Positions 30,733 to 46,531 of a stretch of 64,000 nt of DNA are shown here, in pieces. This stretch comes from Gaiellaceae bacterium. Lineage in GTDB: Bacteria > Actinomycetota > Thermoleophilia > Gaiellales > Gaiellaceae. The stretch spans positions 10,464-74,463 of the forward strand of contig JBOHAD010000002.1 in assembly GCA_050697555.1 (NCBI GenBank), written 5' to 3'. Position 1 is the stretch's first letter, and each line of letters begins with the position of its first letter. The notes beneath the pieces were generated by a model, which was given only the letters and a program-made list of their open reading frames with translations, did not search any database and was not told where the DNA came from. The position numbers and the translations under genes are program-made.

Positions 30733-31095
30733 TTGACAGCTGTAGTCAGCAGAGGACGGACGTTGGACCGCAGTCCCAACGCGCTTGTGAAGGTCGATCT
30801 CGGCGGGAACCGTTTCGTCGCCGTCGAGGCGCACAACGTCAGCCCGGAGAGGCCGGTCGGGATCCGAGACGTTCTCCCGTTCGAGGGACTCTCGGACTCC
30901 ATCGAAGCGATCGCAGAGCGCATGACGGCGGCCTTCGATCGCGTGAAACCCGACCGGGCTGCAGTCGAGTTCGGCGTCGACGTCGGCGTGGAGTCCGGCG
31001 GGCTGACTGCGCTGATCGTGAAGGGGACCGGCACCGCCACGATCAAGGTGACGCTGGAGTGGCAGAACAGCAAGGCGACCGAGGATGAAGGATGA
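30733..31095 (+). CDS. trypsin-co-occurring domain 2 (trypco2 / CU044_2847-like) small protein
   Basis: VKVDLGGNRFVAVEA...AAVEFGVDVGVESGGLTALIVKGTGTATIKVTLEW matches the remembered family pattern (V.FG.K...E.G..IAK...E....V.L.W). The start may be GTG 30787. Its stop overlaps the next start (ATGA). Confidence 0.65.
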   Translation: MTAVVSRGRTLDRSPNALVKVDLGGNRFVAVEAHNVSPERPVGIRDVLPFEGLSDSIEAIAERMTAAFDRVKPDRAAVEFGVDVGVESGGLTALIVKGTGTATIKVTLEWQNSKATEDEG

Positions 31096-32945
31096 TGAGC
31101 ACGGCCGGAAACGGCGCCGGCCTGATCACCGACCGCGAGTTGCGCGTGTGCACGGTTCGCATCGATGTCGCCGGCGCGCCCAAGGGGACTGGCTTCTTCG
31201 TCGCTCCCGGCCACGTCGTGACGTGTGAGCATGTGCTCGGAGGTGCGACCGAGGGCATCCAGATCTCGGATGTCGACGGCGCCGAGTACTCGCTCGTCAA
31301 GGTCGCGGATGTCTCCAAGGACGCCGACCTCGCCGTCCTTCAGGTCAAGCCCGCAGCCGAGCACCGCTGCGTGCTGCTCATCGGCGGACAGAACTTCGAG
31401 GATCGCTTCCTCACATTCGGCTACTCCGAGCTCCACCGCGAAGGCGTTCCGAGCCCACTCGTAGCCGAGGGAAACACGGGTGACGAGCGGCTCCTGAAGC
31501 TCGGCCGGGGACAAGTTCAGCCGGGCATGAGCGGCGCGCCCATCCTCAACAGGCGCACAGGCGGAGTGTGCGGCGTCCTCAGCTGGACGCGCAACGAGCA
31601 GACGGACCTCGGTGGATATGCCATCCCGATCGAGCGATTGTGGCTCCTGAGCCCGACCCTCAAGAGGCAAAACGAGGCGTACCACGAGGCGCATCGTGAC
31701 GAGTGGCTCGACAAGCTGCCGATGATCCAGAAATCGGTATTGCTCAACGCGCGCCCGGGAACGCCCTCCACCGCGGGCTTCACGACCTGGTTCGTCGTCT
31801 CGGTCGGGGGTGAGCAGCGCCACTGGCGGGTCAGCGCGACGCTGCACCCGAGCGGCGAGCTTCTTCCTGCCGAGCCGGCGGACGTGCACCTCGTGCTCGA
31901 CCAGGCGGCGCGGCTCTTCCGCGATTGGGCTGCGCGTCCACGTGTCGACCCGACCGGCACAATCCAGTGGCGGTTCAACCAAGGCGAGGCAATCCGCCTG
32001 CTCGGAAGCATCCTCTTCGACGCTGTGCTGCCGGACGAGATCGGGAGGCGCTTCGACGAGCTCTTGGCGGCCGGAGACGAGCGCGTCCAGCTCGCGCTCC
32101 ATTTCGACCGGACGGTCATCCCGACGGAATTCGTCGACATGCCCTGGGAGTACCTCTACCTCGGCGATGAGCGCGGCTTCCGGAGAGACGCGCACGTAGC
32201 GGCCGAGGAGAAGCTCGCGTTCGTGCGCGTCGAGCAGAACGAGTTCCGAGAGCCCGACCGGCCGACCGGGCGCCAGCTGTCCGCGCTGATGGTCCGGGTC
32301 ACGCCGCCTTCGCAGGGCGGCGACTCCGCCGTCGATGACATTTCCGAGCACGCCTGCGACGTCATTCGTGACCTCGCCGGATTCGAGGCCAAGCCGCTGG
32401 TGATGGCGAAGGCCCTGGATCTTAGGGACGAGATCGCGCTCGGCGCGTATGACATCGTCCACTACGTCGGCTTCGGGCGCTACCACGAGGGCGCCGATCG
32501 CCTCGCGCTCGGAGGCTCGCCCGACTATGACTATCGGGAGGCGCAAATGTTCGCGACTCTCCTGCCGGACGCCGAGCAACGACCGCGCGTCGTCGTCCTC
32601 CAACAGATCGACGGGCCGAGCGAGTTCGTCCCCCCGGACCTCTCCGTCTTCGCCTGGAGGCTCCTCGAGCGCGGCGTGGAAGCCGTCGTGGCGTACCAGT
32701 TCCCGCTCGCCGCGCGGTTCAGCAAGGCGTTCAACAAGGAGCTCTACACCCAGCTCGCCGCCGGCGAGTGCCTGGAGAACGCAGTGCAGAAGGCACGCGC
32801 GTTGATCTGGACCATGGAGCCGGACGTCCATGCTTTCCGCGCGCCGGCCGCCTTCGTGACCCGGCCCGGCGAGCTCAGACTTACCGCCCGAGCAGGGCCG
32901 TCCGCTCCGTCGGCCCGGGTCGGCGTGACCGCAGGACACGCGTAA
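31092..32945 (+). CDS. trypsin-like serine protease fused to a CHAT (caspase-fold) domain that appears catalytically degenerate
   Basis: S1 triad contexts are VVTCEHVL, KDADLAVLQV and QPGMSGAPIL. The C-terminal half has CHAT topology (VQLALHFD...DMPWEYLYL; DIVHYVGFGRY; RVVVLQQIDG; GVEAVVAYQFPL...F...LY..LAAGECLENAV). Confidence 0.8.
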   Translation: MMSTAGNGAGLITDRELRVCTVRIDVAGAPKGTGFFVAPGHVVTCEHVLGGATEGIQISDVDGAEYSLVKVADVSKDADLAVLQVKPAAEHRCVLLIGGQNFEDRFLTFGYSELHREGVPSPLVAEGNTGDERLLKLGRGQVQPGMSGAPILNRRTGGVCGVLSWTRNEQTDLGGYAIPIERLWLLSPTLKRQNEAYHEAHRDEWLDKLPMIQKSVLLNARPGTPSTAGFTTWFVVSVGGEQRHWRVSATLHPSGELLPAEPADVHLVLDQAARLFRDWAARPRVDPTGTIQWRFNQGEAIRLLGSILFDAVLPDEIGRRFDELLAAGDERVQLALHFDRTVIPTEFVDMPWEYLYLGDERGFRRDAHVAAEEKLAFVRVEQNEFREPDRPTGRQLSALMVRVTPPSQGGDSAVDDISEHACDVIRDLAGFEAKPLVMAKALDLRDEIALGAYDIVHYVGFGRYHEGADRLALGGSPDYDYREAQMFATLLPDAEQRPRVVVLQQIDGPSEFVPPDLSVFAWRLLERGVEAVVAYQFPLAARFSKAFNKELYTQLAAGECLENAVQKARALIWTMEPDVHAFRAPAAFVTRPGELRLTARAGPSAPSARVGVTAGHA

Positions 32946-32951
32946 CGCGCG

Positions 32952-35507
32952 ATGAGCCACGCGCTCGACACGATCCGGGACGCGGCGCGTTGGCTGGGCC
33001 CGCATCCGACCTCGCCGGAACAGGAGCTCAACGACATCCGCGACCGCTGGCGCGCCTCCTTCGCAGACGTCGCGCAGGATGCGCACCGGCTGGCCGCGCT
33101 CGTCGACGAAGCGTTGGCGTCCGCAAGCTCCGTGGAATCGTTCGACGCCGAGCGCACTGGCTTCGAAGAGCTGGCAACGGCAGGGAAGCAGGCCGTAGGG
33201 CGGATCCGCTCCGTCATCGACCACATCGACCGGCTGCGCGACGAGTGGAGGGCCGTGCACCGCTTTACGCCCGAGGCGCTCGAGGCCCTGAAGCAGGAGC
33301 TCGACGCGAGGCTCGCCGACTCGAGCGGTGGCGGCGCTCGGGCCTGGCTGAGCGAGCTCCTCGACGCGGCGGACGCCGGCGAGGAAGAGGCGGCAGCGGC
33401 GATCGCGACGGCCGATCTGCCCTGGCCTGAAGATCTTCGCCCGGGCGCAGCGCGGCTGGCGGAGGCGTTTCGGGACTGGCGTGACGGCGGGCCGCCGCCT
33501 GCCCTCGAGCCGATCGAGGAGGTCGCGGAAGGGGCGCTCGCGGGATGGCAGGAGTTGCTGACGCGCGACCTTCGGAGTCGAGCGCATCGATTCGCGGCCT
33601 GGACCGTGCTTCGAGGCGAAGGCGATTCAGCCCGGGCGGTCGCCCACATGGACACTGCGGTCAAGCTTTATCCCTATGCGGGTCGGATGCACGCGGAGCG
33701 CGCCGCGTTCCGCCTGTTCGTCGGCGACTTCGAGCGGGCTGCGACCGACGCTCAGCACGCGATCGAGATGACGCCGCAGGAGCCGTTCGGCTACCTGATG
33801 CTCGGCATCTGGGCCGAGCTGACGGGCAAGTTCGCCACGGCCGATGACCTCTACCGGCGTGGGTTCAGCCGCATGGCAACCGCCGCCGTGGCGCACGTCC
33901 ACAATCGCTCGGCGCTCATTGACCCGCCGGGACGGCTCCTAAAGATGGCGGCCGCCGTGTTGCTCGAGAGCGGTCGCCCCGAGCAGGCTCTCGAGCTCGC
34001 GGACGAAGCGCTGCTGAGCGGCGTCCGCGGCGTGGAAGCGCACCCCGAGGCGGATGCGCACGTGATCCGTCGGAAGGCGCTCGAGCAGCTCCCGGACCGC
34101 CCGCGAAGCCAAGCAGCCGACGCTGCCATCAAGGCCGGCCGGCTGTGCCTCTGGAACGGCGACGTTGATTGCGCGATCGACGAGCTCGATCGCGCGACGA
34201 AGCTCGGCGGGCCTCCGGAGAGCGGCTGGCTCCTCGCGGACGCGCTGCTGACGAAGAGCTACCCGCTCGGCGCGCTGACCCCCGACCAGGAGCTCGTTGC
34301 GCGCGCGCGCTCAATCTGGGAGGCCACGGTCGACGAGACGGGGATCCCGCGTGGGCGTACTGCGTGGGCATACGTCACGAGGGCGATCGTCGCCGATCTC
34401 CAGTCGCAGCGCCCGGACACCGATCGCCGGCGCCCCGGTCTCTTCGAGGCGCTCATGTACGTCGAAAAGGCGATCGTGCATAACTACACCGATGCGCAGC
34501 GGTGGGGCTATGTCGCGCAGTACCTTCGCTACCTCGGGCTCGAGGAGCTGGCCTTCGAGGCGGCGGAGGCCGGGTACGAGCTCGCAGCAGCCGACAGGCA
34601 AGTTCTCGCCGAGCGGCTCCCGCTGCTCGCCAACCGACGCGCGTTCGACGAGGCCGAGGCCGTCGCCGAGCAGCTTGTGGCGATGTACGGCGAGGACCCG
34701 TGGGTGAGCGCCGTCCGCGCGTGGCTCGCGCTCCACCACCGGCGGGACGACGAGCGCACGCTAGCGCTACTCCAGCTCCCGATTACACAGGGCAACGACC
34801 AAGCCTGGTACTGCGAACTGCAAGCCCACGCGTATCTCCTGCGGGACGATGTCGCGGAGGCTCGCGCCGCGTACGGCCGGGTGCTCGAGGTCGAACCGAT
34901 CGACGGCAACACGAAGTGCCGTTTGGCCCGGGCGTCGCTGGCGCTCGGGAAGACCGAGGACGCGCGGGGGTGGCTCGCGAAGGCACGGGACGATTCGACG
35001 ACGCCGCGCCCGAGCTACGTCGTGACGGCCGCGCTGCAGGCTGTTGCTGCCGGCGATTCCGAGGCCGCAGTGCGGAGGCTCGGCGAGGCCGTCCGCCTCG
35101 CGTCGAGTGCCGTGGAGATCGATGACATCCTGTTCGAGACGACGCTCGCGATGCGCGCAACAGCGGCGGACGGAGCCGAAGCTGCGGCCGCACGGGAGCG
35201 CGAGCTCCTCGAGGCTACGAAGGAGACCGTCGCGGAACGGAAGTCAGAGCTCGAGCGGGATCCTCCGACGGCCGACTCGGAACTCGAACGCGCGTTGGCA
35301 GGGCTACCCGAAGGTTCGCTCGATATGCCGGCGATCGCTCTTCTCGCCCTGGCCGGCCGTCGCGACGCAGCCGCCGGTCGCCACGACATCGCCCGAGGGC
35401 GGTATGAGCAGCTGCGCGGCACATGGTTCGAACCCGAGGCGACAATCGCCTTCGAGCGGGAGCTCAAGCGCGTGCGGACGCGCAACGTGTCCATGTCGCG
35501 CCGGTAG
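32952..35507 (+). CDS. large TPR-repeat protein with about 230-aa helical N-terminal region
   Basis: 851 aa. Many 34-aa A/L/Y-rich repeats (for example AERAAFRLFVGDFERAATDAQHAIEMTPQEP). No P-loop seen. Confidence 0.8.
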   Translation: MSHALDTIRDAARWLGPHPTSPEQELNDIRDRWRASFADVAQDAHRLAALVDEALASASSVESFDAERTGFEELATAGKQAVGRIRSVIDHIDRLRDEWRAVHRFTPEALEALKQELDARLADSSGGGARAWLSELLDAADAGEEEAAAAIATADLPWPEDLRPGAARLAEAFRDWRDGGPPPALEPIEEVAEGALAGWQELLTRDLRSRAHRFAAWTVLRGEGDSARAVAHMDTAVKLYPYAGRMHAERAAFRLFVGDFERAATDAQHAIEMTPQEPFGYLMLGIWAELTGKFATADDLYRRGFSRMATAAVAHVHNRSALIDPPGRLLKMAAAVLLESGRPEQALELADEALLSGVRGVEAHPEADAHVIRRKALEQLPDRPRSQAADAAIKAGRLCLWNGDVDCAIDELDRATKLGGPPESGWLLADALLTKSYPLGALTPDQELVARARSIWEATVDETGIPRGRTAWAYVTRAIVADLQSQRPDTDRRRPGLFEALMYVEKAIVHNYTDAQRWGYVAQYLRYLGLEELAFEAAEAGYELAAADRQVLAERLPLLANRRAFDEAEAVAEQLVAMYGEDPWVSAVRAWLALHHRRDDERTLALLQLPITQGNDQAWYCELQAHAYLLRDDVAEARAAYGRVLEVEPIDGNTKCRLARASLALGKTEDARGWLAKARDDSTTPRPSYVVTAALQAVAAGDSEAAVRRLGEAVRLASSAVEIDDILFETTLAMRATAADGAEAAAARERELLEATKETVAERKSELERDPPTADSELERALAGLPEGSLDMPAIALLALAGRRDAAAGRHDIARGRYEQLRGTWFEPEATIAFERELKRVRTRNVSMSRR

Positions 35508-36004: not shown

Positions 36005-36859
36005 TCATACGGGGAAGACCTCCGCGAAGAAGTCGGCGAAGACGGCGAGGGCAAGAAGCCAGAGGCCGACTAGGACGAGGATGCGGCCGCCCCAGCGCTT
36101 CAGGGCGGGTGCGCTCTCCTCCAGCGTTCGGGCGACTCGGTCCTGGCCGGCCGCCAGCAGGAGGGCGAGCGTGAAGACGAGGAGGATCATCGTCAGGGCG
36201 GCGACGAGGAAGGCGAGGAACGCGGGTGCGAATCCGCCCATCGTGAGCGCTTGCCCGGCCAAACCGGCCAGGATCGGGCCCGTTCAGCCGAAGCCGGCGA
36301 GGATGTAGCCGAAGCCGAAGACGAAGTGGCCGGCAAGGGGTCGGCGGCGGCGAAAGCCCGCCTGCCGTCGGAGCAATCCATGCACCGCCGGCTCGAATCC
36401 TCTGAAGGAGATGCGAAGTCGGCCGAGCTGGACGAGCCCGAGGAGGATGAGGAGCGCGCCGACGAGAGCGCGGATGAGACGGCCGGTTGTGCTCGTGAAG
36501 GTCACGCCCTCGAAGAGTGCGGCCCCGGCGATCGCAATCAGCGTGCCCGTGAGGAGGAGGAAGGTGGCCGCTCCGAGCGCGAGCGCCGCCGCGAAGACGA
36601 AACCCGCGCGCCCGTCGCCGCCTCGCCCGCGAGGCGCGTGGGCGAGGATCGAGAGAAGGAGGGGGAAGGAGCAAGGCGAGAAGAAGGAGGCGATGCCCGC
36701 GCCGGCGGCTAACAGGAGGAGCCCGCCTCCCGTCCCTGCCGGCAGCTCGAAGCGGGGGTAGACGACATAGCCGAAGTAGCCGACGAGCGCGACGACAACG
36801 GTCGCGAGCGCGAGCAGCGCGTAGCGGGCCCGCGGATCAGCGAGAACCTTCTCGGTCAC
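36005..36859 (-). CDS. CcdA/DsbD-core family membrane protein with in-frame TGA (36284..36286) at the second redox Cys: candidate selenoprotein
   Basis: ORFs 36284..36859 and 36005..36262 share one frame and are separated by a single TGA. FFSPCSFP aligns with the first CcdA motif, and AGFG-TGA-TGPILAG aligns with GWTPCVGPTLAA of the paralog at 40491..41204. A hairpin follows the TGA. Confidence 0.6.
36254..36272 (-). other. candidate bacterial SECIS hairpin
   Basis: mRNA reads UGA-ACGGGCCCGAU-CCUGGCC-GGUUU-GGCCGGG: a 7-bp stem starting 11 nt after the UGA, with a 5-nt loop starting GG. Confidence 0.45.
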
Positions 36860-36962: not shown

Positions 36963-38111
36963 TCAGGCCACAAACGTCGGCGGCGCGAGCACCGGAACGG
37001 GACAGTTGACGGTAAACACGGTCCCTTTCGTGTCGGGCATGCCTGGGAACTCGTCGAGCTCGCCTCCGTCGCGGGCCGCGTGGATCTCCTTTTCGCTGGT
37101 CAAGAGACGGGCTTCGGCATCGTCCGCCCACCCATACGTGAAGTGGTCCCAGTAAGGACTCCATTCTGGCGCGCCGGCGTCGAAGTCGAAGACGGACGGC
37201 TGGAAGCCCATCGGTCCAGGCCCGGGGAGGCCGTTCATGAAGACGTTCGTGCGGCCCGTCGCGCCTGCTTCGCTCGGTCCGCCCTGCAAACCAGGCGAGA
37301 AGATCGTCTTCGTCATCGCCGCCGCCGGGGCGATCGAGTGCTCGGTGACGAAGTATCGGCTGCCCGGATAGCACTGACCGAGCTTGAAGGTGACGCGCAT
37401 TGCGCCGGTGTCCGGCGGCTCGAGAAGCGGCCCCTCGCCGAGATAGCCCTTGCGCTCTCGGTCGACAGCGAGCTCGCCGGTTGACCACTTGATAATTGCG
37501 GCGTTGAGGACGAATCCGCTGTCCTCGACCATGAGCGCGCCTGCGCGCTTGGCCTCTTGGATCTCTGCCACTGAAGCGAGCTCGCGTGGGCCGTTGCTCC
37601 AGCGCAAGTAATGGACACGCCAGGCCGGCGTGTAGGCCTCGCGCCCCGGCTCCGATGAGAAGATCGCGGGCCGGTCCGCGGCGACGCGATCCACGTAGAC
37701 AGCACCCGAAAGCTTCGGGGTCGCGAGAGCGGCCAGCTTCGGCACGAAGACGAGGCGCTCCGCGTCAGCGAAGCCCTCGTCCGAGACGTCCGTGCGGATG
37801 AAATAGACGTCGCTCCCGTCCACGCGCCCGCCATGGAGGCGCATCGTGACGAAGCCGAAGTCACCGTCCCATTCGTCGGATTCAAGCGAGAAGTCGACGA
37901 CGTCGCCGATGATGGGCCGGGCCCGCTCCGCCGCCTCCTCGAGTGTCGCCGTCCCGACGCCTGACTCACTAGGCGCCGCCTCGTCCCCGCTGCCGCCGCA
38001 GGCGGCCAGCAGGGTCGGGCCAAGCGTGCCGACGGCCACCACACCTGTGGCACGCCGGAGCAGCTCCCCCCGGTCGAGTCGAACTGTCGCAATCGATCCC
38101 TGAGGTTGCAC
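36963..38111 (-). CDS. Tat-signal lipoprotein of unknown function
   Basis: GTG 38111 is preceded by GAGGGGGG. Twin-arginine motif and lipobox (ELLRRATGVVAVGTLGPTLLAACGG). The conserved-looking C-terminus is WSPYWDHFTYGW...FTVNCPVPV. Confidence 0.7.
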   Translation of the reverse strand: MQPQGSIATVRLDRGELLRRATGVVAVGTLGPTLLAACGGSGDEAAPSESGVGTATLEEAAERARPIIGDVVDFSLESDEWDGDFGFVTMRLHGGRVDGSDVYFIRTDVSDEGFADAERLVFVPKLAALATPKLSGAVYVDRVAADRPAIFSSEPGREAYTPAWRVHYLRWSNGPRELASVAEIQEAKRAGALMVEDSGFVLNAAIIKWSTGELAVDRERKGYLGEGPLLEPPDTGAMRVTFKLGQCYPGSRYFVTEHSIAPAAAMTKTIFSPGLQGGPSEAGATGRTNVFMNGLPGPGPMGFQPSVFDFDAGAPEWSPYWDHFTYGWADDAEARLLTSEKEIHAARDGGELDEFPGMPDTKGTVFTVNCPVPVLAPPTFVA

Positions 38112-38414: not shown

Positions 38415-38787
38415 TGCGGTCGGCGCTACGCGAAGGCGCGCAGCTCAGGCAAGGGGCCAACCGATCGAGGAGGAGTTGACGGCCGTCCACACGCAGGGTG
38501 CGAGCGTGCCGGAGATGAGCCGCTAAGGGCGGCCGCGGCCGTCACGACTGGGGGGCGCTGTGTGAGGTGCAGGCGACGGCGCGCTGCCCGGCGGCAGCGT
38601 CCGCTTTCGCGTCCGCGTAGTAGAAACGTGAGGAGCCCGGCGGCGAAGAGCATTCCTCGGTGAAACGGGCCTGCGCGCCCGCTCTCGGGTGGAGCCTTTC
38701 CGACTCCTTGCGAGTGACCCTAGTCTTGCCCACTCCCGACACGGACGGCATGCGGCGCCAGGGCGGCTGGGGGCATCCAACGGATGG

Positions 38788-39927
38788 ATGAGGCGCATCG
38801 TCGTGCTGGGCGGGTTGCTCGCGCTCGTCGCCATGGGCTGCGGTGGCGGCGATGAGGGCGGCGCGGGCGGGGGGCGGTCGAGCGGAGAGGCGAGTGACGA
38901 GCTTGCCGTCTCGACTCTCGGGTGGGAGACCGACTTCTCCAAGCACACGGTGCCCCTCTCAGAATTCATGAGCGGGGGACCGGGGAAGGACGGGATCCCG
39001 GCGGTCGACGAGCCGAAGTTCGTTTCGGTCGAGGAGGCAGGCGACTGGCTCGCCGCGCGGGAGCCGGTCATCGAGCTCGAGCTCGGCGGTGTCACCCGCG
39101 CGTATCCGCTCCAGATTCTCGTCTGGCACGAGATCGTGAACGACGAGGTTGCCGGTCGCCCTGTGGCGGTGACGTTCTGTCCCCTCTGCAACACGGCCAT
39201 CGTCTTCGACCGGCGTTTGGACGAACGGGTGCTCGACTTCGGCACGACAGGCAATCTGCGCCACTCGGACCTCGTCATGTACGACCGCCAAACCGAGAGC
39301 TGGTGGCAACAGTTTGGGGGCGAGGCCGTCGTGGGCGAGCTCGCCGGCGAGCGCCTGGAGCTGCTGCCCTCGCGGATCGTCGCCTGGGGGGACTTCGCCG
39401 GCCGCCATCCCGACGGGGAGGTTCTCTCCCGGGACACAAGCTTCGGCCGCGACTACGGCCGTAATCCCTACGCCGGCTACGACGACGTCGACTCGGGCCC
39501 CTTCTTCCCTGCGAAGGGAGCGGACGACGATCGACTCCTGCCGAAGGAACGCGTCGTGTTCATCGAGCTCGAAAACGAGGCCGTCGCGGTTCCGTTCTCT
39601 GTCCTGCGGAAGGAGCAGACGATGGAGGTGGAGGTCGGGGGAGAGCGGCTCGAGCTCCGCTGGGTGCCGGGGGTCGGTTCCGCGCTCGACTCGCCCGACA
39701 TCGGGGATGGGCGCGAGGTCGGCTCCGCGGAGGTGCGGTCGCTCGTGAGTGGCGAGCCGGTGCCGTTCGACCAGCCGTTCTGGTTCGCGGTTGCCTCCTT
39801 CCGCCCCGACATCCGGATCGTGGGAGCCGAGGCGGGGGCGAGCTCCTCCTCGTCCGCCCCAAAGGACACCGTCCCGGCCGCGCCAGCCTCTCCGCCGCGG
39901 CGCGGTTACCTGGCTCCTCAGGCGTAG
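38788..39927 (+). CDS. DUF3179 domain-containing lipoprotein
   Basis: Lipobox LVAMGCGG. GKDGIPAVDEPKF, ELGGVTRAYPLQILVWHEIVND, TFCPLCNTAIVFDR and GTTGNLRHSDLVMYDRQTESWWQQ are typical DUF3179 motifs. Confidence 0.85.
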   Translation: MRRIVVLGGLLALVAMGCGGGDEGGAGGGRSSGEASDELAVSTLGWETDFSKHTVPLSEFMSGGPGKDGIPAVDEPKFVSVEEAGDWLAAREPVIELELGGVTRAYPLQILVWHEIVNDEVAGRPVAVTFCPLCNTAIVFDRRLDERVLDFGTTGNLRHSDLVMYDRQTESWWQQFGGEAVVGELAGERLELLPSRIVAWGDFAGRHPDGEVLSRDTSFGRDYGRNPYAGYDDVDSGPFFPAKGADDDRLLPKERVVFIELENEAVAVPFSVLRKEQTMEVEVGGERLELRWVPGVGSALDSPDIGDGREVGSAEVRSLVSGEPVPFDQPFWFAVASFRPDIRIVGAEAGASSSSSAPKDTVPAAPASPPRRGYLAPQA

Positions 39928-39932
39928 CCGCG

Positions 39933-40475
39933 CTACTCCCAGGTGATCGAGCGTCGGACCCAGCTGAACTCGGCCGCGTGAGCGGTCTGGTTCTCGGCGG
40001 CGAAGATGATGATCGCCACTTCGCCGGAGTCGAGCTCGATTCCATAAACGCGCATGGTCGGGCCAAGCGGGTCGTCCTGGTTGGCCGCCCAGATGATCGA
40101 CGCCTCGACGCCGGGTCGGTCGCCGATGCGGGCGGTCTGCGTGTACACGAGCGTCGTTCCGTCACCCCGGGGAGGACGCAGGATGGCGGCGGCGAGCTCG
40201 GCAAACTCCGCATGGGATCTGTGCTTGCGCCGCGGGAGATACTGCACGCCGATGAAGGCCGCTGTTCGCTCCGTGTTGTCGTTCAGGAGCTCGCCGAAGC
40301 GGTCGGAGCGGCCTCGGCCCCAGTCGCTCGGGTATCGCAGCGTCAGCCGTCCATCCGCGTAGGTCTCGTCGATCCAGGAGGGGAAGTATTCCTCGACCGG
40401 TGGCGTGGAGGTCTGTTCGTTGCCGAGCGAGCAGCCCGCCCCGAGGAGAGCGAGGAGAACAAGAATCGTGGGCAC
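39933..40475 (-). CDS. lipoprotein of unknown function
   Basis: Lipobox LLGAGCS. 180 aa. Confidence 0.65.
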   Translation of the reverse strand: MPTILVLLALLGAGCSLGNEQTSTPPVEEYFPSWIDETYADGRLTLRYPSDWGRGRSDRFGELLNDNTERTAAFIGVQYLPRRKHRSHAEFAELAAAILRPPRGDGTTLVYTQTARIGDRPGVEASIIWAANQDDPLGPTMRVYGIELDSGEVAIIIFAAENQTAHAAEFSWVRRSITWE

Positions 40476-40490
40476 ATCCGGTTGGATGCG

Positions 40491-41204
40491 TCAGATCTGC
40501 CAACCGGTGTAGCGGGCGAGCCGTGTCGTCAGTCGGACGAGGTCGCCGCTGATGAGGAGCGCGCCGAAGGCGACGAGCACAGTGGCGGAGGCAACGCTGA
40601 CGGTGCGCCAGTGACTGCGCAGCCAGCGGACGAGCCCGAGCGAGCGCGTGAACGCGAGCCCGAAGAAGAGGAACGGCAGGCCGAGGCCGAGCGAGAAGGC
40701 GGCCAGGAGGACGGCACCCTCGGCCGCGCCTCCGCCTCCGGCTGAGAGCGTCAGGATCGCCGCCAGCGTCGGCCCGACGCAGGGCGTCCACCCGATCGCG
40801 AATGCGACTCCGGTGAGCCCGGAGGCAGCCATGCTTCCGCCGGGTCGGAGGCCGAGGCGGCGCTCGGTCGAGAGGAGCCGCGGAAGGGGGAGCCCGAGGA
40901 AGGTGACGGCGGCGACGATGATCAAGATCCCCGCGGCGATCTCGAGCGGGCGCCGGTTCTCGAGCAGGAAACTGCCGAACCAGGCGGCCCCGGCGCCGAA
41001 CGCGACGAACATGGCCGTGAATCCGCCGACGAAGGCCGCCGTAGACGTGGTGACCCGGCGCGGGCGGGCGCCGAGCTCGTCGAAGCCGACCCCCGAGACG
41101 AAGGAGAGATAGCCGGGCACGAGCGGGAGCACGCAAGGCGATGTGAAAGAGACGACGCCGGCGGCGAAGGCGAGCGCCAGCCCTGCGGGGCCGAGCTCGA
41201 TCAC
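40491..41204 (-). CDS. ccdA: cytochrome c biogenesis / thiol-disulfide transfer protein CcdA
   Basis: FTSPCVLPLVPGYL and IGWTPCVGPTLAAIL motifs, 6 TM. GTG 41204 overlaps the stop of the upstream reductase (GTGA). Confidence 0.88.
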   Translation of the reverse strand: MIELGPAGLALAFAAGVVSFTSPCVLPLVPGYLSFVSGVGFDELGARPRRVTTSTAAFVGGFTAMFVAFGAGAAWFGSFLLENRRPLEIAAGILIIVAAVTFLGLPLPRLLSTERRLGLRPGGSMAASGLTGVAFAIGWTPCVGPTLAAILTLSAGGGGAAEGAVLLAAFSLGLGLPFLFFGLAFTRSLGLVRWLRSHWRTVSVASATVLVAFGALLISGDLVRLTTRLARYTGWQI

Positions 41205-42565
41205 GTATCCGCAGCCGGGTCGAGCGGCAGGTCGCGGGCGGCAAAGAAGAGCGCCTCCGAGAAGGTGGGGAAGGGCTGGATTGTGCTTCGGAGGACGTCG
41301 ACGGGGACTTCCGCCTGGATCGCGAGCGTGACCTGGCCAATCCACTCGCCGGCCTCGGGGCCGACGGCGACCGCGCCGACCAGGATGCGACGCCCGGGAT
41401 CCGCGAAGAGCCTGACGAAGCCGGGCCGCTTCGGTCGCTCATAGGTCGAGGAGCGCGAGGTGGCGTTGACCTCCCAGCTCGCGGAGACGAGCCCCTCGCC
41501 GTCGGTGCGGCCGACCGAGGCGACCTGAGGGTCGGTGAAGGCTACAGCCGGAACCGCCCGGTAGTCGGCCCGGGCGTCGCCGCCGGCGACGTTCACCGCG
41601 GCCACCCGTGCCTGATACTTGCCCATGTGCGTGAAGAGCGCGATCCCGGTGACGTCCCCGATCGCCCACACGTTCTCCGCGGCCTGGAGGCGGTCGTCGA
41701 CCTCGATTCCGGTCCTACCGAGCCGCACGCCGACGTCCTTGAGACCGAGTCCGTCGACATTCGGACGCCGGCCGGTCGCGACGAGGAGCCGTTCCGCCTC
41801 GAGCAGCACGCCTCCGGGGAGGTGGAGGCGGAAGCCGTCCGACGTCCGCTCGACCGCCTCCGTGAGCGTGTTCAGGAGGATGTCGATTCCCTCCTCTTCG
41901 AGGGTGGCCTGGATGAGGCGACCCGCGTCGGGGTGGTCGCGGGGCAAGAGATGGTCGATGTCCTGGACGATCGTGACCCTCGTGCCTAGCCGTGCGAAGA
42001 ACCGGGCGAGCTCGCAGCCGACCACCCCGCCGCCGAGCACGACGAGGCTGCCCGGCAGCTCGCGAGTCGTCGTCGCCTCGCGGTTCGTCCAGTAGCCGCT
42101 GCCCTTGAGGCCGTCGATGGGGGGCGCGGAGGCCGAGGAGCCCGTCGCGACGACGAGCTTCTGGTACTCCACCTCGCGGTCTCCGACTTGGAGGGGGCCG
42201 GGGCGGACGACCCGTCCGGCGCCGCGGACGACTTCGACCTGTCGGTCGGCGAGCCAGGTCTCGTGGCTCGAGTCGTCGAGCTCGTCGGTAACGTGGTCCC
42301 GCCACCAGAGGACGCGCTCCCAGTCCGTCTCTCCGTTGACCGCCTCGGCCGCACCCGGGGCGCGGCGTGCCGCCGCGACGACTTCGAGCGGGCGCAGGAG
42401 CGTCTTCGAGGGCATGCACGCCCAGTAGGTGCACTCGCCCCCGAGGAGTTCTCTCTCGACGAGCGTGATCGGCACCTCGGCATCGAGGCGCCTGAGCGCC
42501 CCGCCGCACGCCTCGCCGGTCGAGCCGCCGCCGAGGACGACGACGCGTCCGCCCTCACCTGCCAT
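41201..42565 (-). CDS. class I pyridine nucleotide-disulfide oxidoreductase (LpdA/dihydrolipoyl dehydrogenase-like)
   Basis: VVVLGGGSTGE FAD motif. Redox pair GGECTYWACMPSK. NAD motif VVLGGGVVGCELA. C-terminal dimerisation domain. The ATG at 42565 is preceded by GGAGGGAG. Confidence 0.88.
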   Translation of the reverse strand: MAGEGGRVVVLGGGSTGEACGGALRRLDAEVPITLVERELLGGECTYWACMPSKTLLRPLEVVAAARRAPGAAEAVNGETDWERVLWWRDHVTDELDDSSHETWLADRQVEVVRGAGRVVRPGPLQVGDREVEYQKLVVATGSSASAPPIDGLKGSGYWTNREATTTRELPGSLVVLGGGVVGCELARFFARLGTRVTIVQDIDHLLPRDHPDAGRLIQATLEEEGIDILLNTLTEAVERTSDGFRLHLPGGVLLEAERLLVATGRRPNVDGLGLKDVGVRLGRTGIEVDDRLQAAENVWAIGDVTGIALFTHMGKYQARVAAVNVAGGDARADYRAVPAVAFTDPQVASVGRTDGEGLVSASWEVNATSRSSTYERPKRPGFVRLFADPGRRILVGAVAVGPEAGEWIGQVTLAIQAEVPVDVLRSTIQPFPTFSEALFFAARDLPLDPAADT

Positions 42566-42687: not shown

Positions 42688-44172
42688 ATGAGCGGGAACG
42701 GCGCACCGAGAGCCCGCATCGACCGGCCCGAGGTCTTCCTCGAGCTGACCAAATCGATCTGCCCTCTCTGCAAGCGGGTGATCGACGCGGAGGTCAACGT
42801 GCGTGACAACCGCGTGATCATGCGCAAGCGCTGCCCCGAGCACGGGCCCTTCGAGGCCCTCGTCTACTCCGATGCCGAGCTCTACACGGCGCAGCTCCGC
42901 TTCAACAAGCCGGGGACGTTGCCGCTCGAGTTCCAGACGGAGGTGAAGGACGGCTGCCCGTTGGACTGCGGGCTCTGTCCCGAGCACAAGCAGCACGCCT
43001 GCCTGGGGCTGATCGAGGTGAACTCCAACTGCAACCTCGACTGTCCCATCTGCTTCGCCGACTCGGGGCACCAGCCCGACGGGTTCGCGCTGACGGTCGA
43101 GCAGGTCTCCTTCATGGTCGACCGCTTCGTGGCCGCGGAGGGGGAGCCGGAGGTGCTCCAGTTCTCCGGAGGCGAGCCCTCCATCCACCCGCGGATCGTC
43201 GAGTTCATGGAGCTCGCGAAGGGACGCGGGATCCGCGTCGTCATGCTGAACACGAACGGCCTCCGGCTCGCCCGCGACCCGCGTTTCGCCGCCGAGTGCG
43301 CCCGCGTGGGGTCGCACGTCTACCTCCAGTTCGACGGCTTCGAGCGCGAGACGCACCTGGCGATCCGGGGTCGTGACCTGCGCTCCGACAAGGAGCGAGC
43401 GCTGGCCAACTGCCAACGGGAGGGTGTGAGCGTGACCCTCGTGGCGGCCGTCGAGCGGGGCGTGAACGAGCACGAGGTCGGCGAGATCGTCCGCCTCGGC
43501 GTCTCCCACCCGGCCGTGAACAGCGTCGTCTTCCAGCCCGTGACGCATGCAGGCCGGCACCTCGTCTTCGACCCTCTCGAGCGTCTCACGAACGCCGATG
43601 TCATGAAGCTCGTCGCCGCTCAGGTGCCCGAGTGGTTCCGGGTCGACGACTTCGTTCCCGTCCCCTGCTGCTTTCCGAACTGCCGCAGCATGAGCTATGC
43701 GCTCGTCGACGGGGGAGACGTGATTCCGCTCACGCGCCTCTTCGAGGTCGAGGACTACCTGGACTACCTCTCGAACCGGGTCATCCCCGACCTCGAGATC
43801 CGGGGCGCGCTCGAGCGGATGTTCTCGTCGTCTGCGACGCCCGGCGCCGAGGCCGCCCTCCTCGCCTGTGAGAGCTGCGCGGTCGACGTTCCTGCCGCCC
43901 TCGCCGACGTCCGTGAGCACGCGTTCGTGCTCGCCGTGCAGGACTTCCAGGATCCGTACACGCTGAACGTCCGCCAGCTGATGAAGTGCTGCATCGCGCA
44001 GATCACGCCGGACGGGCGACTCATCCCCTTCTGCGCCTACAACTCCGTCGGCTACCGCGAGCAGGTGCGCGCGCTGCTGACCGGTGCCGAGGTTGTGCCG
44101 GTCGTCCCGAACGCGGAGCCGCTCCAGCCCTTGCTGGCCTACACGTCCTACGGATCGAGGCGCCTGCCGTGA
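42688..44172 (+). CDS. radical SAM protein with N-terminal Cys-rich ribbon (MJ0619 / tetraether-synthase-like branch, from memory)
   Basis: ICPLCKRVIDAEV...KRCPEHGPF, GCPLDCGLCPEHKQH, and radical SAM cluster motif NSNCNLDCPICFA (CxxxCxxC). LQFSGGEPS SAM-binding motif. Confidence 0.85.
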   Translation: MSGNGAPRARIDRPEVFLELTKSICPLCKRVIDAEVNVRDNRVIMRKRCPEHGPFEALVYSDAELYTAQLRFNKPGTLPLEFQTEVKDGCPLDCGLCPEHKQHACLGLIEVNSNCNLDCPICFADSGHQPDGFALTVEQVSFMVDRFVAAEGEPEVLQFSGGEPSIHPRIVEFMELAKGRGIRVVMLNTNGLRLARDPRFAAECARVGSHVYLQFDGFERETHLAIRGRDLRSDKERALANCQREGVSVTLVAAVERGVNEHEVGEIVRLGVSHPAVNSVVFQPVTHAGRHLVFDPLERLTNADVMKLVAAQVPEWFRVDDFVPVPCCFPNCRSMSYALVDGGDVIPLTRLFEVEDYLDYLSNRVIPDLEIRGALERMFSSSATPGAEAALLACESCAVDVPAALADVREHAFVLAVQDFQDPYTLNVRQLMKCCIAQITPDGRLIPFCAYNSVGYREQVRALLTGAEVVPVVPNAEPLQPLLAYTSYGSRRLP

Positions 44173-45005
44173 CCGCAAGCCCGGAGGCGATCAAGGCCTG
44201 CTGCGCGACCGCCTACGCCTCGCCCGTCGCGCGCTGGCTCTTGGGCTCGAGCTTCCATCCCGGCGGGGTGGCGCTCACGCGGCGGCTGATCCGTTCCCTC
44301 GGCGTAGGTTCGGGCGACACGGTCGCGGACGTGGCATGCGGCCCGGGCGCGAGTTCAATGCAGCTTGCCCGCGAGGCGGGGTGTCGCGTCGTCGGGATCG
44401 ACCTCTCGTCCGAGTCCATCGAGTCGGCCCGGCGCGCAGCAGAAGAGACGGGGCTCGCCGCCTCGGTCAGCTTCGTGGTCGGGGACGCGGAGGCGCTTCC
44501 TCTCGAGGACGCGAGCGTCGACGGGGTCCTCTGCGAGTGCTCTCTCTGCACGTTCCCGGACAAGCGTTCGGCGGCCGCCGAGCTCTCCAGGGTCTTGAAG
44601 CCGGGCGGACGGCTCGCGCTCTCCGACATGACCGCCGATCCCGCGAAGCTGCCCGCGTCGCTGCGGACCCTCGAGGCCTGGATCGCCTGCCTGGCCGACG
44701 CGCGTCCGCTTCCTGCGCTCGTCGAGCTCCTCCGCGGCGCGGGGCTCGTCGTCGAGAGCGTGGAGCGCCACGACGACGCGCTCGCACGACTCCTCGACCG
44801 TGTCGAGGCGCGCCTTCGCCTCGCACGGGTCGCCCTCGCCCACGGCGGCGATCCCGCTCTCGTCGACCGCGGCCTTGAGCTCGTGGCGGTCGCGCGAGAG
44901 AGCCTCGAGCGCGGCTTCCTCGGCTACGCCGTCCTCGCCGCCCGCCGGCCGGCCGGCCGAGTCGAAGCGACCGCCAGGCCGGTCGGCGCATCGAACCTCG
45001 TGTGA
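44169..45005 (+). CDS. class I SAM-dependent methyltransferase, ArsM-like (CC motif)
   Basis: IKACCATAYASPVARWLLGSSFHPGG, VADVACGPGASS (motif I), VDGVLCECSLCTFPDK and LKPGGRLALSD. The GTG start overlaps the rSAM stop (GTGA). Confidence 0.8.
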   Translation: MTASPEAIKACCATAYASPVARWLLGSSFHPGGVALTRRLIRSLGVGSGDTVADVACGPGASSMQLAREAGCRVVGIDLSSESIESARRAAEETGLAASVSFVVGDAEALPLEDASVDGVLCECSLCTFPDKRSAAAELSRVLKPGGRLALSDMTADPAKLPASLRTLEAWIACLADARPLPALVELLRGAGLVVESVERHDDALARLLDRVEARLRLARVALAHGGDPALVDRGLELVAVARESLERGFLGYAVLAARRPAGRVEATARPVGASNLV

Positions 45006-45607
45006 GCGGCGAAGAACGTCCGCGAAACCGCCGCCCTCCCCTGCGGATCGGCCTCGCGGCGCTTGCGCTGGCTGCCCTTCTTGCCGTAGCGGTCTTCGCC
45101 GCTCTCGCCCTCCTCTCCGACGACGGAGCGCTCCGGGGGAGCCCGAGCCCCGGCTCCCCCGGCGCCTCCTCGGCGCAACCGGTCGCAGTGACGCCGGAGG
45201 AGGCGCCGACGCTGCTCGGGGAGGATCCGATCAGCGGGGAGGAGGTCACGCTCGCCGACTTCCGTGGGAAGCCGGTGGTGATCAACGTCTGGGCCTCCTG
45301 GTGCCCGGGCTGCAACGACGAGGCGGCCGACCTGCGCGAGTTCGCCGCCGACCACCCCGAGGTCGTGGTCCTGGGCGTCGACTTCCAGGACACCGTCGAG
45401 GGGGCGCGCCGCTTCTACCGGCGCTGGGAGTGGACGCACCCGAGCATCTTCGACTCGTCGGGAACGCAGAGCGCGGCGCTGGGGCTTTTCGGCATGCCGA
45501 CGACCCTGTTCCTCGACAGCCGGCACCGCATCGCCGCGCGCGTCGTGGGGGCCACCGACCGGGCCGGATTCGAGCACGGGCTCGAGCTCGCCACGCAGGC
45601 CTCGTAA
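45002..45607 (+). CDS. membrane-anchored TlpA/ResA-family thiol:disulfide oxidoreductase (CPGC)
   Basis: TM anchor, then FRGKPVVINVWASWCPGCNDEA. The GTG start overlaps the methyltransferase stop (GTGA). Confidence 0.88.
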   Translation: MSGEERPRNRRPPLRIGLAALALAALLAVAVFAALALLSDDGALRGSPSPGSPGASSAQPVAVTPEEAPTLLGEDPISGEEVTLADFRGKPVVINVWASWCPGCNDEAADLREFAADHPEVVVLGVDFQDTVEGARRFYRRWEWTHPSIFDSSGTQSAALGLFGMPTTLFLDSRHRIAARVVGATDRAGFEHGLELATQAS

Positions 45608-45692
45608 GAGAGGCCGGTGCTCCGTGCAACCGGGAGGGCGCGTGCGCATCGGACCGCGAAGGTAAGACAAACGACAGAGGGGGCAAGCTGCG

Positions 45693-46199
45693 ATGCAGTT
45701 CAACTGGTGGGAAGGCCTCGCAGCGGGCGCGGTCGCGACCGTGGCGATGACAGTCCTCATGCAGATGGGTGCGGCGATGGGCATGACGCGCATGAACATG
45801 GCCCTCATGCTCGGCTCTATGTTCCGCCGCGATCCCGAGTCTGCCAGGTCGGTAGGGATGACCCTCCACTTCATGAACGGCCTCGCGTTCGGCGTTCTCT
45901 ACGCACTCGTCTGGAGGGCGATCGATCCTGCCGATCTCGCCGACGCCTGGTGGATCGGTCTCATCTTCGGCGCCGTGCACGGGGTGGTCGCGATGGCCAT
46001 GATGCCGGTGATGAGCGCCATGCACCCGCGCGTCCGAAGCGACGCGCTGGCGGTCTCCGAAGGACCGGGGAGCGAGGTGCGGCTCCCCCCGTTCGGCTTC
46101 GGCGGCCGCGGCTTCGGTGCGATGACGCCGATGGGCATCCTGCTCGGCCACCTCGTGTTCGGCGTCGTCTGGGGGTTCGTTTTCTGGTGGCTCGCCTAG
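45693..46199 (+). CDS. integral membrane protein (4 TM, Met-rich)
   Basis: 168 aa, hydrophobic, Met/Gly-rich. Confidence 0.65.
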   Translation: MQFNWWEGLAAGAVATVAMTVLMQMGAAMGMTRMNMALMLGSMFRRDPESARSVGMTLHFMNGLAFGVLYALVWRAIDPADLADAWWIGLIFGAVHGVVAMAMMPVMSAMHPRVRSDALAVSEGPGSEVRLPPFGFGGRGFGAMTPMGILLGHLVFGVVWGFVFWWLA

Positions 46200-46219
46200 A
46201 CGGAAACACAACGGTCGCC

Positions 46220-46531
46220 GTGGAGCTGCTCTACTTCGAAGGCTGTCCACACTGGCGGCAGGCGGCCGCAGCAATTGCCGACGCTGCCCGGGTCACGGGG
46301 ATCAGGTCGGATGTCCGCGCGACCAGAGTCTCTGACCCAGAGGACGCCGTTCGCCATCATTTCCTCGGCTCGCCCACGGTGCGTGTCGCGGGTCGCGACG
46401 TCGACCCTGCGGCGCAGCAGCGTTCCGCGTACGCGCTCGCCTGCCGGGTCTACGACTCGGAGGCGGGACGAGCGTGGTCCCCTCCAGTCGGGTGGATCGC
46501 CGCCGCGCTTCACGAGGCCGCGGGCGCGTGA
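46220..46531 (+). CDS. small thioredoxin-fold-like protein (YFEGCPHW motif)
   Basis: VELLYFEGCPHW...HHFLGSPTVRVAGRDV resembles small thioredoxin-like proteins. GTG 46220 is the suggested start. Confidence 0.6.
   Translation: MELLYFEGCPHWRQAAAAIADAARVTGIRSDVRATRVSDPEDAVRHHFLGSPTVRVAGRDVDPAAQQRSAYALACRVYDSEAGRAWSPPVGWIAAALHEAAGA

Follow-up and report, generated by a model that had tools for sequence, protein, structure and literature searches.

A predicted CcdA-like membrane selenoprotein family with an in-frame UGA at the second redox site in Gaiellaceae and other bacterial lineages

Introduction

Membrane proteins of the DsbD superfamily carry out their chemistry with two intramembrane cysteines, one in transmembrane helix 1 (TM1) and the other in TM4 (PMC3322552). 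Here we analyse a gene from a Gaiellaceae bacterium that appears to encode a remote member of this superfamily with selenocysteine (Sec) at the second of these positions. The gene lies at 36005..36859 on the minus strand of a 64,000-nucleotide stretch of the metagenome-assembled genome (MAG) GCA_050697555.1 (contig JBOHAD010000002.1); we refer to this whole stretch as the window.

Several described systems resemble the predicted protein in part. Like CcdA (PF02683), it has an SPC cysteine in an early TM helix, a second redox residue followed by xGP, and a similar size. It differs from CcdA in the predicted Sec at the second site, in the motif around it (GFG-U-TGP instead of WTP-C-xGP), in an extra predicted N-terminal TM helix, and in its family's neighbours, which are metal-type MerR regulators and not cytochrome c maturation genes. 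DsbD and ScsB likewise have a pair of redox residues inside the membrane, one in TM1 and the other in TM4, and ScsB serves copper tolerance (PMC3322552). However, the protein described here lacks their periplasmic alpha and gamma domains, the fusions found in its family are N-terminal HMA domains predicted to be cytoplasmic, and it would contain Sec.

Among catalogued selenoproteins, only TsoB (NF045694) has a DsbD-like membrane part. It is a rhodanese/DsbD fusion-like protein with the motif UxxxxU, filed under the rhodanese-like forms (PMC13188914). The TsoB model spans 572 positions and has two Sec residues, whereas our protein would have a single Sec and has no rhodanese domain. NF045694 matched neither this protein nor 28 members of its family, and beyond this search TsoB was compared from its description in the review; the window's ordinary CcdA gave a weak match to the DsbD region of the model. 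Sec also occurs in membrane transport proteins, including a MerT-like protein listed as a putative transporter of mercuric ions (motif C/SxxU, PF02411), SaoP, YeeE/YedE and the SO_0444 family (PMC13188914). These proteins offer a parallel in placing Sec in membrane transport and in dealing with soft metals, with a comparable operon logic of MerR, MerB and HMA, but they have no sequence relation to our protein and differ in fold family and motif.

CcdA-domain 'mercury transporter' proteins have been annotated in actinomycete mer operons (PMC12195606, Table 4). They recall the locus of P0121, the nearest Cys homologue outside the clade studied here, in combining a CcdA-like membrane protein with mer genes, but unlike our protein they are all-Cys. 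When P0002, a Cys form from within the clade, was searched by tblastn against 72,556 PLSDB plasmids, where actinomycete mer plasmids were expected, nothing was found at E 1e-5. The annotated 'mercury transporters' are therefore not close relatives.

Has a CcdA-type selenoprotein been recognised before? The preliminary description of this locus, made from the sequence, suggested that such a family could be new, and our searches agree. No stand-alone CcdA/DsbD_TM protein is among the 119 prokaryotic selenoprotein families of a 2026 review (PMC13188914), and of the catalogued selenoprotein models, which NCBIfam release 20 includes, none matches the CcdA-like family. The passages searched in the main texts of deep-Sep and BSepDB contain no such family. 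Full-text literature searches combining selenoprotein with CcdA, DsbD or 'cytochrome c biogenesis' returned nothing relevant; a prior mention elsewhere is still conceivable.

Results

A single reading frame interrupted by one UGA

The features of the gene, all on the minus strand, are as follows.

36005..36859, minus: target gene, encoding a predicted membrane selenoprotein of about 284 residues in the CcdA/DsbD superfamily (from frame continuity, relatives and hhalign)
36284..36286, minus: UGA, predicted to encode Sec as residue 192, lying where CcdA has its second redox Cys, in TM4 (from comparative data)
36671..36673, minus: Cys63 in FFSPCSFP, the first (TM1) redox Cys and presumed partner of Sec192 (from alignments A1-A3 and hhalign)
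36254..36272, minus: putative Sec insertion sequence (SECIS)-type hairpin, CCUGGCC / GGUUU / GGCCGGG, 11 nt 3' of the UGA

Two minus-strand open reading frames (ORFs), 36284-36859 and 36005-36262, share one frame whose sole break is the TGA at 36284-36286. This confirms on minus-strand coordinates what the preliminary description had read from the sequence. The frame has 191 sense codons before the TGA (36859..36287) and 92 after it (36283..36008), and ends at a stop codon at 36005-36007. The joined product includes IASFFSPCSFPLLL, FFSPCSFP and FGYILAGFG-TGA-TGPILAGLAGQ, and its Cys63 is invariant throughout alignments A1-A3. Nowhere else in the window did a scan detect an in-frame TGA followed by a GGU-loop hairpin.

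Public annotation treats the TGA as a stop. GenBank MGH3004438.1, a 191-aa 'cytochrome c biogenesis protein CcdA', corresponds to the N-terminal ORF as a truncated CcdA, and gene callers assign a separate 85-aa ORF 3' of it. Contigs from a further two NCBI assemblies, and Logan run assemblies as well, encode an identical N-terminal product.

We propose instead that the two ORFs form a single gene in which the UGA encodes Sec by means of an fdhF-type hairpin, giving a CcdA-superfamily membrane protein of about 284 residues. From the comparisons below, we put the probability of this reading at about 0.8.

Relatives keep the TGA, and homologues have cysteine

How is this codon conserved? In a species-level scan that took one genome for each GTDB species, 245 relatives came to light, and the best 80 of these loci were retained for analysis of the TGA. 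All 80 have TGA at the Sec codon with a continuing frame, making 81 of 81 when the window is counted. In most retained loci the frame runs for 93 further sense codons and ends in ...FPV. Among the lineages that they represent are Acidimicrobiales, Gaiellaceae, Solirubrobacterales, Nitriliruptorales, Anaerolineales, Thermomicrobiaceae, Caldilineaceae, Vicinamibacteraceae and Gemmatimonadales. The family as a whole occurs in Actinomycetota, Chloroflexota, Acidobacteriota and Gemmatimonadota, with a count of at least 245 species-level genomes.

Protein collections give the same picture. Among 5.8 billion proteins searched, 314 were relatives, and of the best 120 clusters, 110 stop exactly at ...AGFG, six are full-length with AGFG-C-TGPIL, and one is called with Trp at the site. 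The Cys forms of the close clade are P0002-4 and P0006-8. The Trp form, P0005 (JGI metagenome 3300067032), was called full-length, presumably under a gene-caller code in which TGA means Trp. A full HMMER pass over 1.84 billion representatives yielded 491 relatives, and among the 149 listed, 66 terminate at the Sec codon and another 47 extend over the full length with Cys at the site, as judged by motif. Every one of the 39 distant full-length homologues that we aligned has Cys in this column. Taken together, the comparisons indicate that the core clade essentially always encodes Sec, with Cys in its place in one close clade and further afield. The Sec/Cys pairing that the preliminary description had proposed to check in orthologues is therefore present on a broad scale.

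The sequence just past the TGA is conserved as protein. Thr-Gly-Pro at codons +1 to +3 is kept while third positions vary, with Thr as ACG in 32 sequences and ACC in 22, and Gly as GGG in 24, GGC in 15 and GGT in 13. No conserved restart codon follows the TGA; the first possible in-frame start is scattered from +4 to +57. Because TGP is kept as protein and the restart codon is scattered, ribosomes are expected to read through the UGA, and separate initiation of a C-terminal product is unsupported.

All members seen are derived from MAGs or metagenomes, which may explain why the family is absent from RefSeq-based surveys.

A conserved hairpin follows the UGA

In the window, the minus strand downstream of the UGA can form a hairpin with CCUGGCC (36272-36266) and GGCCGGG (36260-36254) as stem and GGUUU (36265-36261) as loop, after an 11-nt spacer. 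The 7-bp stem includes one U-G pair, and the 24-nt core has a predicted folding energy of -13.1 kcal/mol. This is the element given in the preliminary description: a 7-bp stem with a 5-nt loop that starts GG.

Across the family, this region carries a strong signal of selection on the RNA. We measured synonymous-codon entropy in 61 ungapped sequences and found 0.2-0.7 bits at codons +5 to +9, compared with 1.7-1.9 gene-wide; elsewhere the values stay near the gene-wide level. The constrained codons specify Leu-Ala-Gly-Leu-Ala and occupy nt +15..+29, after a 12-nt spacer. For Gly at +7, 58 of 60 sequences use GGT, a codon that is in the minority at the gene's other Gly positions. Among 50 distinct sequences, 94.7% of the cells of a 6-bp helix are paired, and both sides have changed together (C-G to G-C, U-A and so on), that is, in a compensatory manner, in five of the six pairs. 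None of 500 shuffles reached the observed helix values, and all slid registers collapsed.

The consensus loop is GGUCU. Its GGU CUG lies at nt +21..+26, the register that it also has in E. coli fdhF, and the family hairpin also resembles the fdhF SECIS in its spacer of about 11-12 nt, its G+C-rich stem and its GGUC(U) apical loop. The stem sequence differs from that of fdhF, and the window copy has GGUUU. Searches of Rfam around the site, at gathering thresholds and at E 10, gave only noise and no matching model. The DNA of four Cys forms was compared, a small sample: L082, L089 and L090 have a broken stem, and L081 has lost the loop U. The hairpin is thus conserved or compensated in TGA forms and degraded in these Cys forms, as the preliminary description would have it for an element tied to the TGA. 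These patterns mark the hairpin as a selected RNA element, probably an fdhF-type SECIS, with predicted binding of SelB.

A remote branch of the CcdA/DsbD superfamily

The relationship to CcdA is distant. With hhalign, a family profile (A3, built from 28 read-through translations) matched a profile of five ordinary CcdAs with 98% probability (E 1.5e-13, 206 columns). The alignment pairs SPC with SPC and GFG-[U]-TGP with WTP-C-xGP, so that both redox positions correspond. Because the profiles match across both redox sites, the family appears to be a remote branch of the CcdA/DsbD superfamily, and on this evidence the window protein is a predicted CcdA/DsbD-beta superfamily member with an extra N-terminal helix. 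Three statements of the preliminary description hold up here: that the joined product is CcdA-like, that FFSPCSFP is the first redox motif, its Cys63 aligning with the Cys of the CcdA SPC, and that the TGA sits at the second redox Cys.

The preliminary description had compared the protein with an ordinary CcdA at 40491..41204 of the window, and a PF02683 match (E 8e-15) bears out this assignment; the motifs of this paralogue are FTSPCVLP and GWTPCVGPTLAAIL. Compared directly by BLASTP, the two proteins barely reach significance (E 0.039). A search of PDB sequences with the joined protein gave no match. NCBIfam gave none for the window protein and one stray ArsG-permease match among the 28 members, and some database relatives have precomputed PF02683 matches. 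AlphaFold2, run on a 40-row alignment headed by the Cys form P0002, returned a model too poor to use (pLDDT 63, pTM 0.40). Alternate loops have Lys plus Arg values of 4.5, 7.1 and 4.5, against 1.0, 2.3 and about 0 in the others. Hydropathy and this charge distribution fit seven TM helices with the N-terminus inside, in a positive-inside pattern.

Sec decoding in related lineages

The window has four tRNA genes, all ordinary. With no sel genes in the window or the fetched loci, Sec decoding in this MAG is a prediction. Six relatives (L049, L050, L052, L055, L059 and L077) encode a Sec-type FdhA (CNRT-TGA-HAPS) on the same contig as the target gene, and 12 nt past the TGA of those FdhA genes lies the hairpin GUCGCC-GGUCU-GGCGGC. 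A Sec-type FdhA with the same kind of hairpin on six contigs indicates that those lineages decode Sec with such an element. In these relatives the FdhA gene lies 1-2 kb downstream of the CcdA-like selenoprotein gene, where it appears as split ORFs (for example at 9777 in L055).

Genomic neighbourhood

What surrounds the gene in its relatives? The commonest neighbour is a heavy-metal-type MerR-family regulator, found at 43 loci. It is directly upstream in about 33 of them, divergent within 900 nt in 21 and co-directional in about 12. These regulators were located with a real mer locus as query; the ORF clusters that cover their region look antisense. They score about 85-110 bits, roughly equally for MerR, ZntR and CadR/PbrR and slightly lower for CueR, and a Cys79-like 'PC' and a C-terminal Cys are conserved in them. 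Other recurrent neighbours are DF-family proteins (12 loci, including the window), flavoprotein disulfide reductases (9-12), HMA-domain P-type ATPases (11), TlpA-like proteins, CcdA and rhodaneses (8 each), ArsR (7), zf-CopZ and DUF3179 proteins (5 each) and MerB-like proteins (4).

Some Sec forms carry an N-terminal HMA-like (CxxC) extension, in five of 77 loci and in 11 of 47 representative clusters. Five representatives were tested against Pfam and all proved to have HMA, a precomputed match exists for P0117, and the fused domains are predicted to be cytoplasmic. Distant Cys homologues (P0217, P0243) are fused to TlpA/AhpC-like domains. PF02411 and PF03203 (Mer transporter) matched neither the target nor the 28 family members, and one distant homologue (P0251) has a weakly MerC-like N-terminal region (E 5e-4).

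The Cys forms have a similar setting. MerR-family genes adjoin P0002 and P0008, and P0002 (at L081) also adjoins a fragment of a flavoprotein disulfide reductase with GGEC[ST][FY][YW]ACMPSK, the type found in the 9-12 Sec-form loci. P0121, at 42% identity, lies in a locus of MerR, DF, MerB-domain, CcdA-like and rhodanese genes together with a full MerB. The actinobacterial mer-type locus L089 (3035-5033) has MerR, DF, two small MerB-domain pieces, a Cys-form CcdA-like gene, rhodanese and a divergent full-length MerB. This arrangement suggests a role related to mercury for the thiol proteins of the DF family, so far catalogued only as 'hypothetical' among selenoprotein families. In three Anaerolineae loci (L033 3216-3989, L064 370-1149 and L079 19-651), ordinary CcdA-like ORFs have SPCVLP at the C-terminal end just before the stop, which suggests tandem or oddly split ccdA genes.

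In the window itself, the genes upstream of the target are as follows.

36963-38039, minus: DUF7482 protein of 358 aa with a twin-arginine/lipoprotein-like N-terminus (PF24298, E 5e-62); the longest ORF reaches 38204
38788-39927, plus: DUF3179 protein, Cys form FCPLCN (PF11376)
39933-40475, minus: lipoprotein
40491-41204, minus: ordinary all-Cys CcdA paralogue, 3.6 kb from the target (PF02683)
41201-42565, minus: pyridine-nucleotide (flavoprotein) disulfide oxidoreductase, CTYWAC (best match MerA, 327 bits; cut-off 454)
42688-44172, plus: TrsS/Tes-like radical SAM protein (TrsS 346 bits, cut-off 490; Tes 321 bits)
44169-45005, plus: DVU_1556-like methyltransferase (149 bits; cut-off 155)
45002-45607, plus: TlpA/ResA-like thiol-disulfide oxidoreductase
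45617-46531, plus: DF family (seleno)protein, Cys form CPHW, with homology at 46220-46489 (NF049942, 97 bits, above cut-off)

DUF3179 is a listed selenoprotein family with the motif UxxC/T (PMC13188914). The gene order DUF3179/DUF7482/target is common to the close relatives L086-L088, and a DUF7482 homologue is near the target in 13 loci. The flavoprotein gene overlaps the start of the ordinary ccdA; we rejected it as a true MerA, as it has no C-terminal Cys pair and falls below the TIGR02053 cut-off. The four genes at 42688-46531 are co-directional, and several of their families include selenoproteins elsewhere; in L008, L021 and L069, too, the TrsS-like radical SAM gene is found close to the target. 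A 304-aa ORF at 38523-39437 (minus) was discarded as a spurious frame opposite the DUF3179 gene.

Directly on the 3' side of the target, plus-strand genes at 30787-35507 encode Trypco1 (102 aa), Trypsin_2 with weak CHAT (616 aa) and TPR (851 aa) proteins, labels that follow the gene calls and Pfam annotation of L086, a near-identical locus. This group, unrelated to the selenoprotein, resembles a conflict or signalling module built on a protease.

Discussion

Does the UGA encode selenocysteine?

Three other explanations of the TGA have to be weighed against Sec insertion. If it were a true stop, the locus would hold a split or decayed ccdA-like gene making two polypeptides, or a pseudogene. Public annotation and all gene callers agree with such a split (191-aa product plus 85-aa ORF), and Sec machinery was not found in the window. 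However, the TGA, the frame and about 93 conserved downstream codons persist in 81 of 81 genomes of four phyla, selection at the protein level begins directly past the TGA with no conserved restart, the hairpin is selected at synonymous sites, and homologues have Cys there. The alternative anticipated in the preliminary description, that orthologues are genuinely split at this point with no conserved hairpin, is not what we observed, and we regard a true stop as very improbable. Reading of the UGA as Trp, Cys or Gly, through codon reassignment or leaky termination, has in its favour one JGI protein called with Trp at the site. Yet the hosts are Actinomycetota, Chloroflexota and similar lineages, and ordinary ORFs of the window end at TGA, as do those of the related loci examined. 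The Cys of homologues is the signature expected of Sec, the hairpin matches fdhF's SelB-binding element both in its sequence and in its register, and a Sec-type FdhA is encoded on the same contigs. Such recoding is equally hard to credit. An assembly or sequencing error that turned TGC or TGT into TGA is a general concern with a MAG source, with nothing specific to point to it here. The identical N-terminal product in other NCBI and Logan assemblies and the TGA in 80 other genomes make an error scarcely conceivable.

Several observations weigh against the Sec interpretation or the fold assigned to it. Searches with E. coli SelA, SelB and SelD (tblastn) found no selA, selB or selD in the 64-kb window or the fetched loci, and ARAGORN found no tRNA-Sec in the window or in 60 loci scanned. 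The support from FdhA comes from Acidimicrobiia-type relatives and not from Gaiellaceae. Taken alone, the window hairpin does not exceed chance for DNA so rich in G+C (z = -1.5 for a 44-nt fold, with 17 of 200 shuffles equal); its loop is GGUUU and not the consensus GGUCU, a variant shared with one other locus only (L079). Moreover, the E. coli fdhF element carries a bulged U in its stem, and the stem here has no obvious one. Pfam gave no match for the window protein even at E 10, including DsbD_TM (PF02683), which matched only three of 28 family members, weakly (best E 4e-6); the assignment to the CcdA fold draws its backing from profile alignment. It is the comparative data, and not the window by itself, that make the hairpin and the likeness to the paralogue significant.

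What might the protein do?

Our preferred functional reading, which we hold tentatively and at somewhat under even odds, is that the protein contains a membrane-embedded site for a soft metal of the Hg(II) type. In this mechanism, SelB and Sec-tRNA would recognise the hairpin and insert Sec at the UGA, producing an intramembrane pair of Cys63 and Sec192. This pair would constitute the soft-metal site and would take metal from outside. The metal would then cross the membrane or pass to cytoplasmic thiol partners, which may be HMA, the DF-family protein, the flavoprotein disulfide reductase or MerB, and the adjacent metal-type MerR regulator would switch the gene on. Support from context comes from the MerR genes at 43 loci, the HMA fusions, the mer locus of P0121, the HMA P-type ATPases and ArsR. 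A more far-reaching proposal is that the family forms a new MAG-restricted class of metal-responsive, CcdA-fold, mer-type transporter with an intramembrane Cys-Sec pair, nearly obligate for Sec across four phyla; such a class would be the first DsbD-superfamily protein with Sec in its transmembrane redox pair. We offer this as a possibility that could well prove wrong. Other facts speak against a role in metal handling: no neighbour is universal among the relatives, the window locus has no MerR neighbour, and a selenolate might hold Hg(II) too tightly for turnover.

The same selenoprotein might instead act as a CcdA-type conduit, in which cytoplasmic thioredoxin would reduce a Cys63-Sec192 selenenylsulfide and an exported thioredoxin-like protein would be reduced in turn. 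Sec would then give quicker exchange in an oxidising envelope, and regulation by metal would reflect repair of envelope thiols, as in Scs copper tolerance. The homology to CcdA with both redox positions conserved fits this well, as does the TM1/TM4 Cys mechanism of the DsbD superfamily, with ScsB tied to copper tolerance (PMC3322552). TlpA/ResA-like genes near the target (at 8 loci and at 45002-45607 of the window), CcdA at 8 loci, and the TlpA/AhpC-like fusions of P0217 and P0243 point the same way. Yet the commonest neighbour is a metal-type MerR regulator and not an exported thioredoxin-like protein, and the HMA fusions are predicted on the cytoplasmic side, where thioredoxin and not a metal-binding domain would be needed. 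In addition, an ordinary CcdA is already present 3.6 kb away, and the nearest Cys homologue lies among MerB genes. We consider the conduit possible, at perhaps a third of the total likelihood. The preliminary description had spoken of a transmembrane reductant conduit: its CcdA-type membrane selenoprotein is backed by the hhalign, TGA and hairpin data, and the conduit itself becomes one of two readings, with the family context leaning towards metal. The window context, with its exported DUF7482 protein and DUF3179 protein and without MerR, favours neither the metal site nor the conduit.

Significance

Judged from comparative sequence data, the CcdA-like family is a new predicted Sec-containing branch of a known membrane superfamily, widespread and systematically mis-annotated. 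In each Sec member that we saw, the annotation shows a truncated CcdA and, apart from it, a small orphan ORF. An annotation rule that combines AGFG-TGA-TGP with the GGUCU hairpin would mend hundreds of gene models. Moreover, the predicted SECIS has the loop and the register of the E. coli fdhF element, which makes expression and testing in that host realistic.

If our interpretation is true, a widespread membrane selenoprotein family joins the bacterial selenoproteome, with members in Gaiellales, Acidimicrobiales, Anaerolineales and Vicinamibacterales, groups that have been little explored for selenium. A selenol inside a DsbD-type membrane relay would be a natural experiment on what Sec contributes to transmembrane thiol chemistry. 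Finally, the context of MerR, HMA and MerB suggests a link between selenium and mercury, or soft metals more generally, in soil bacteria.

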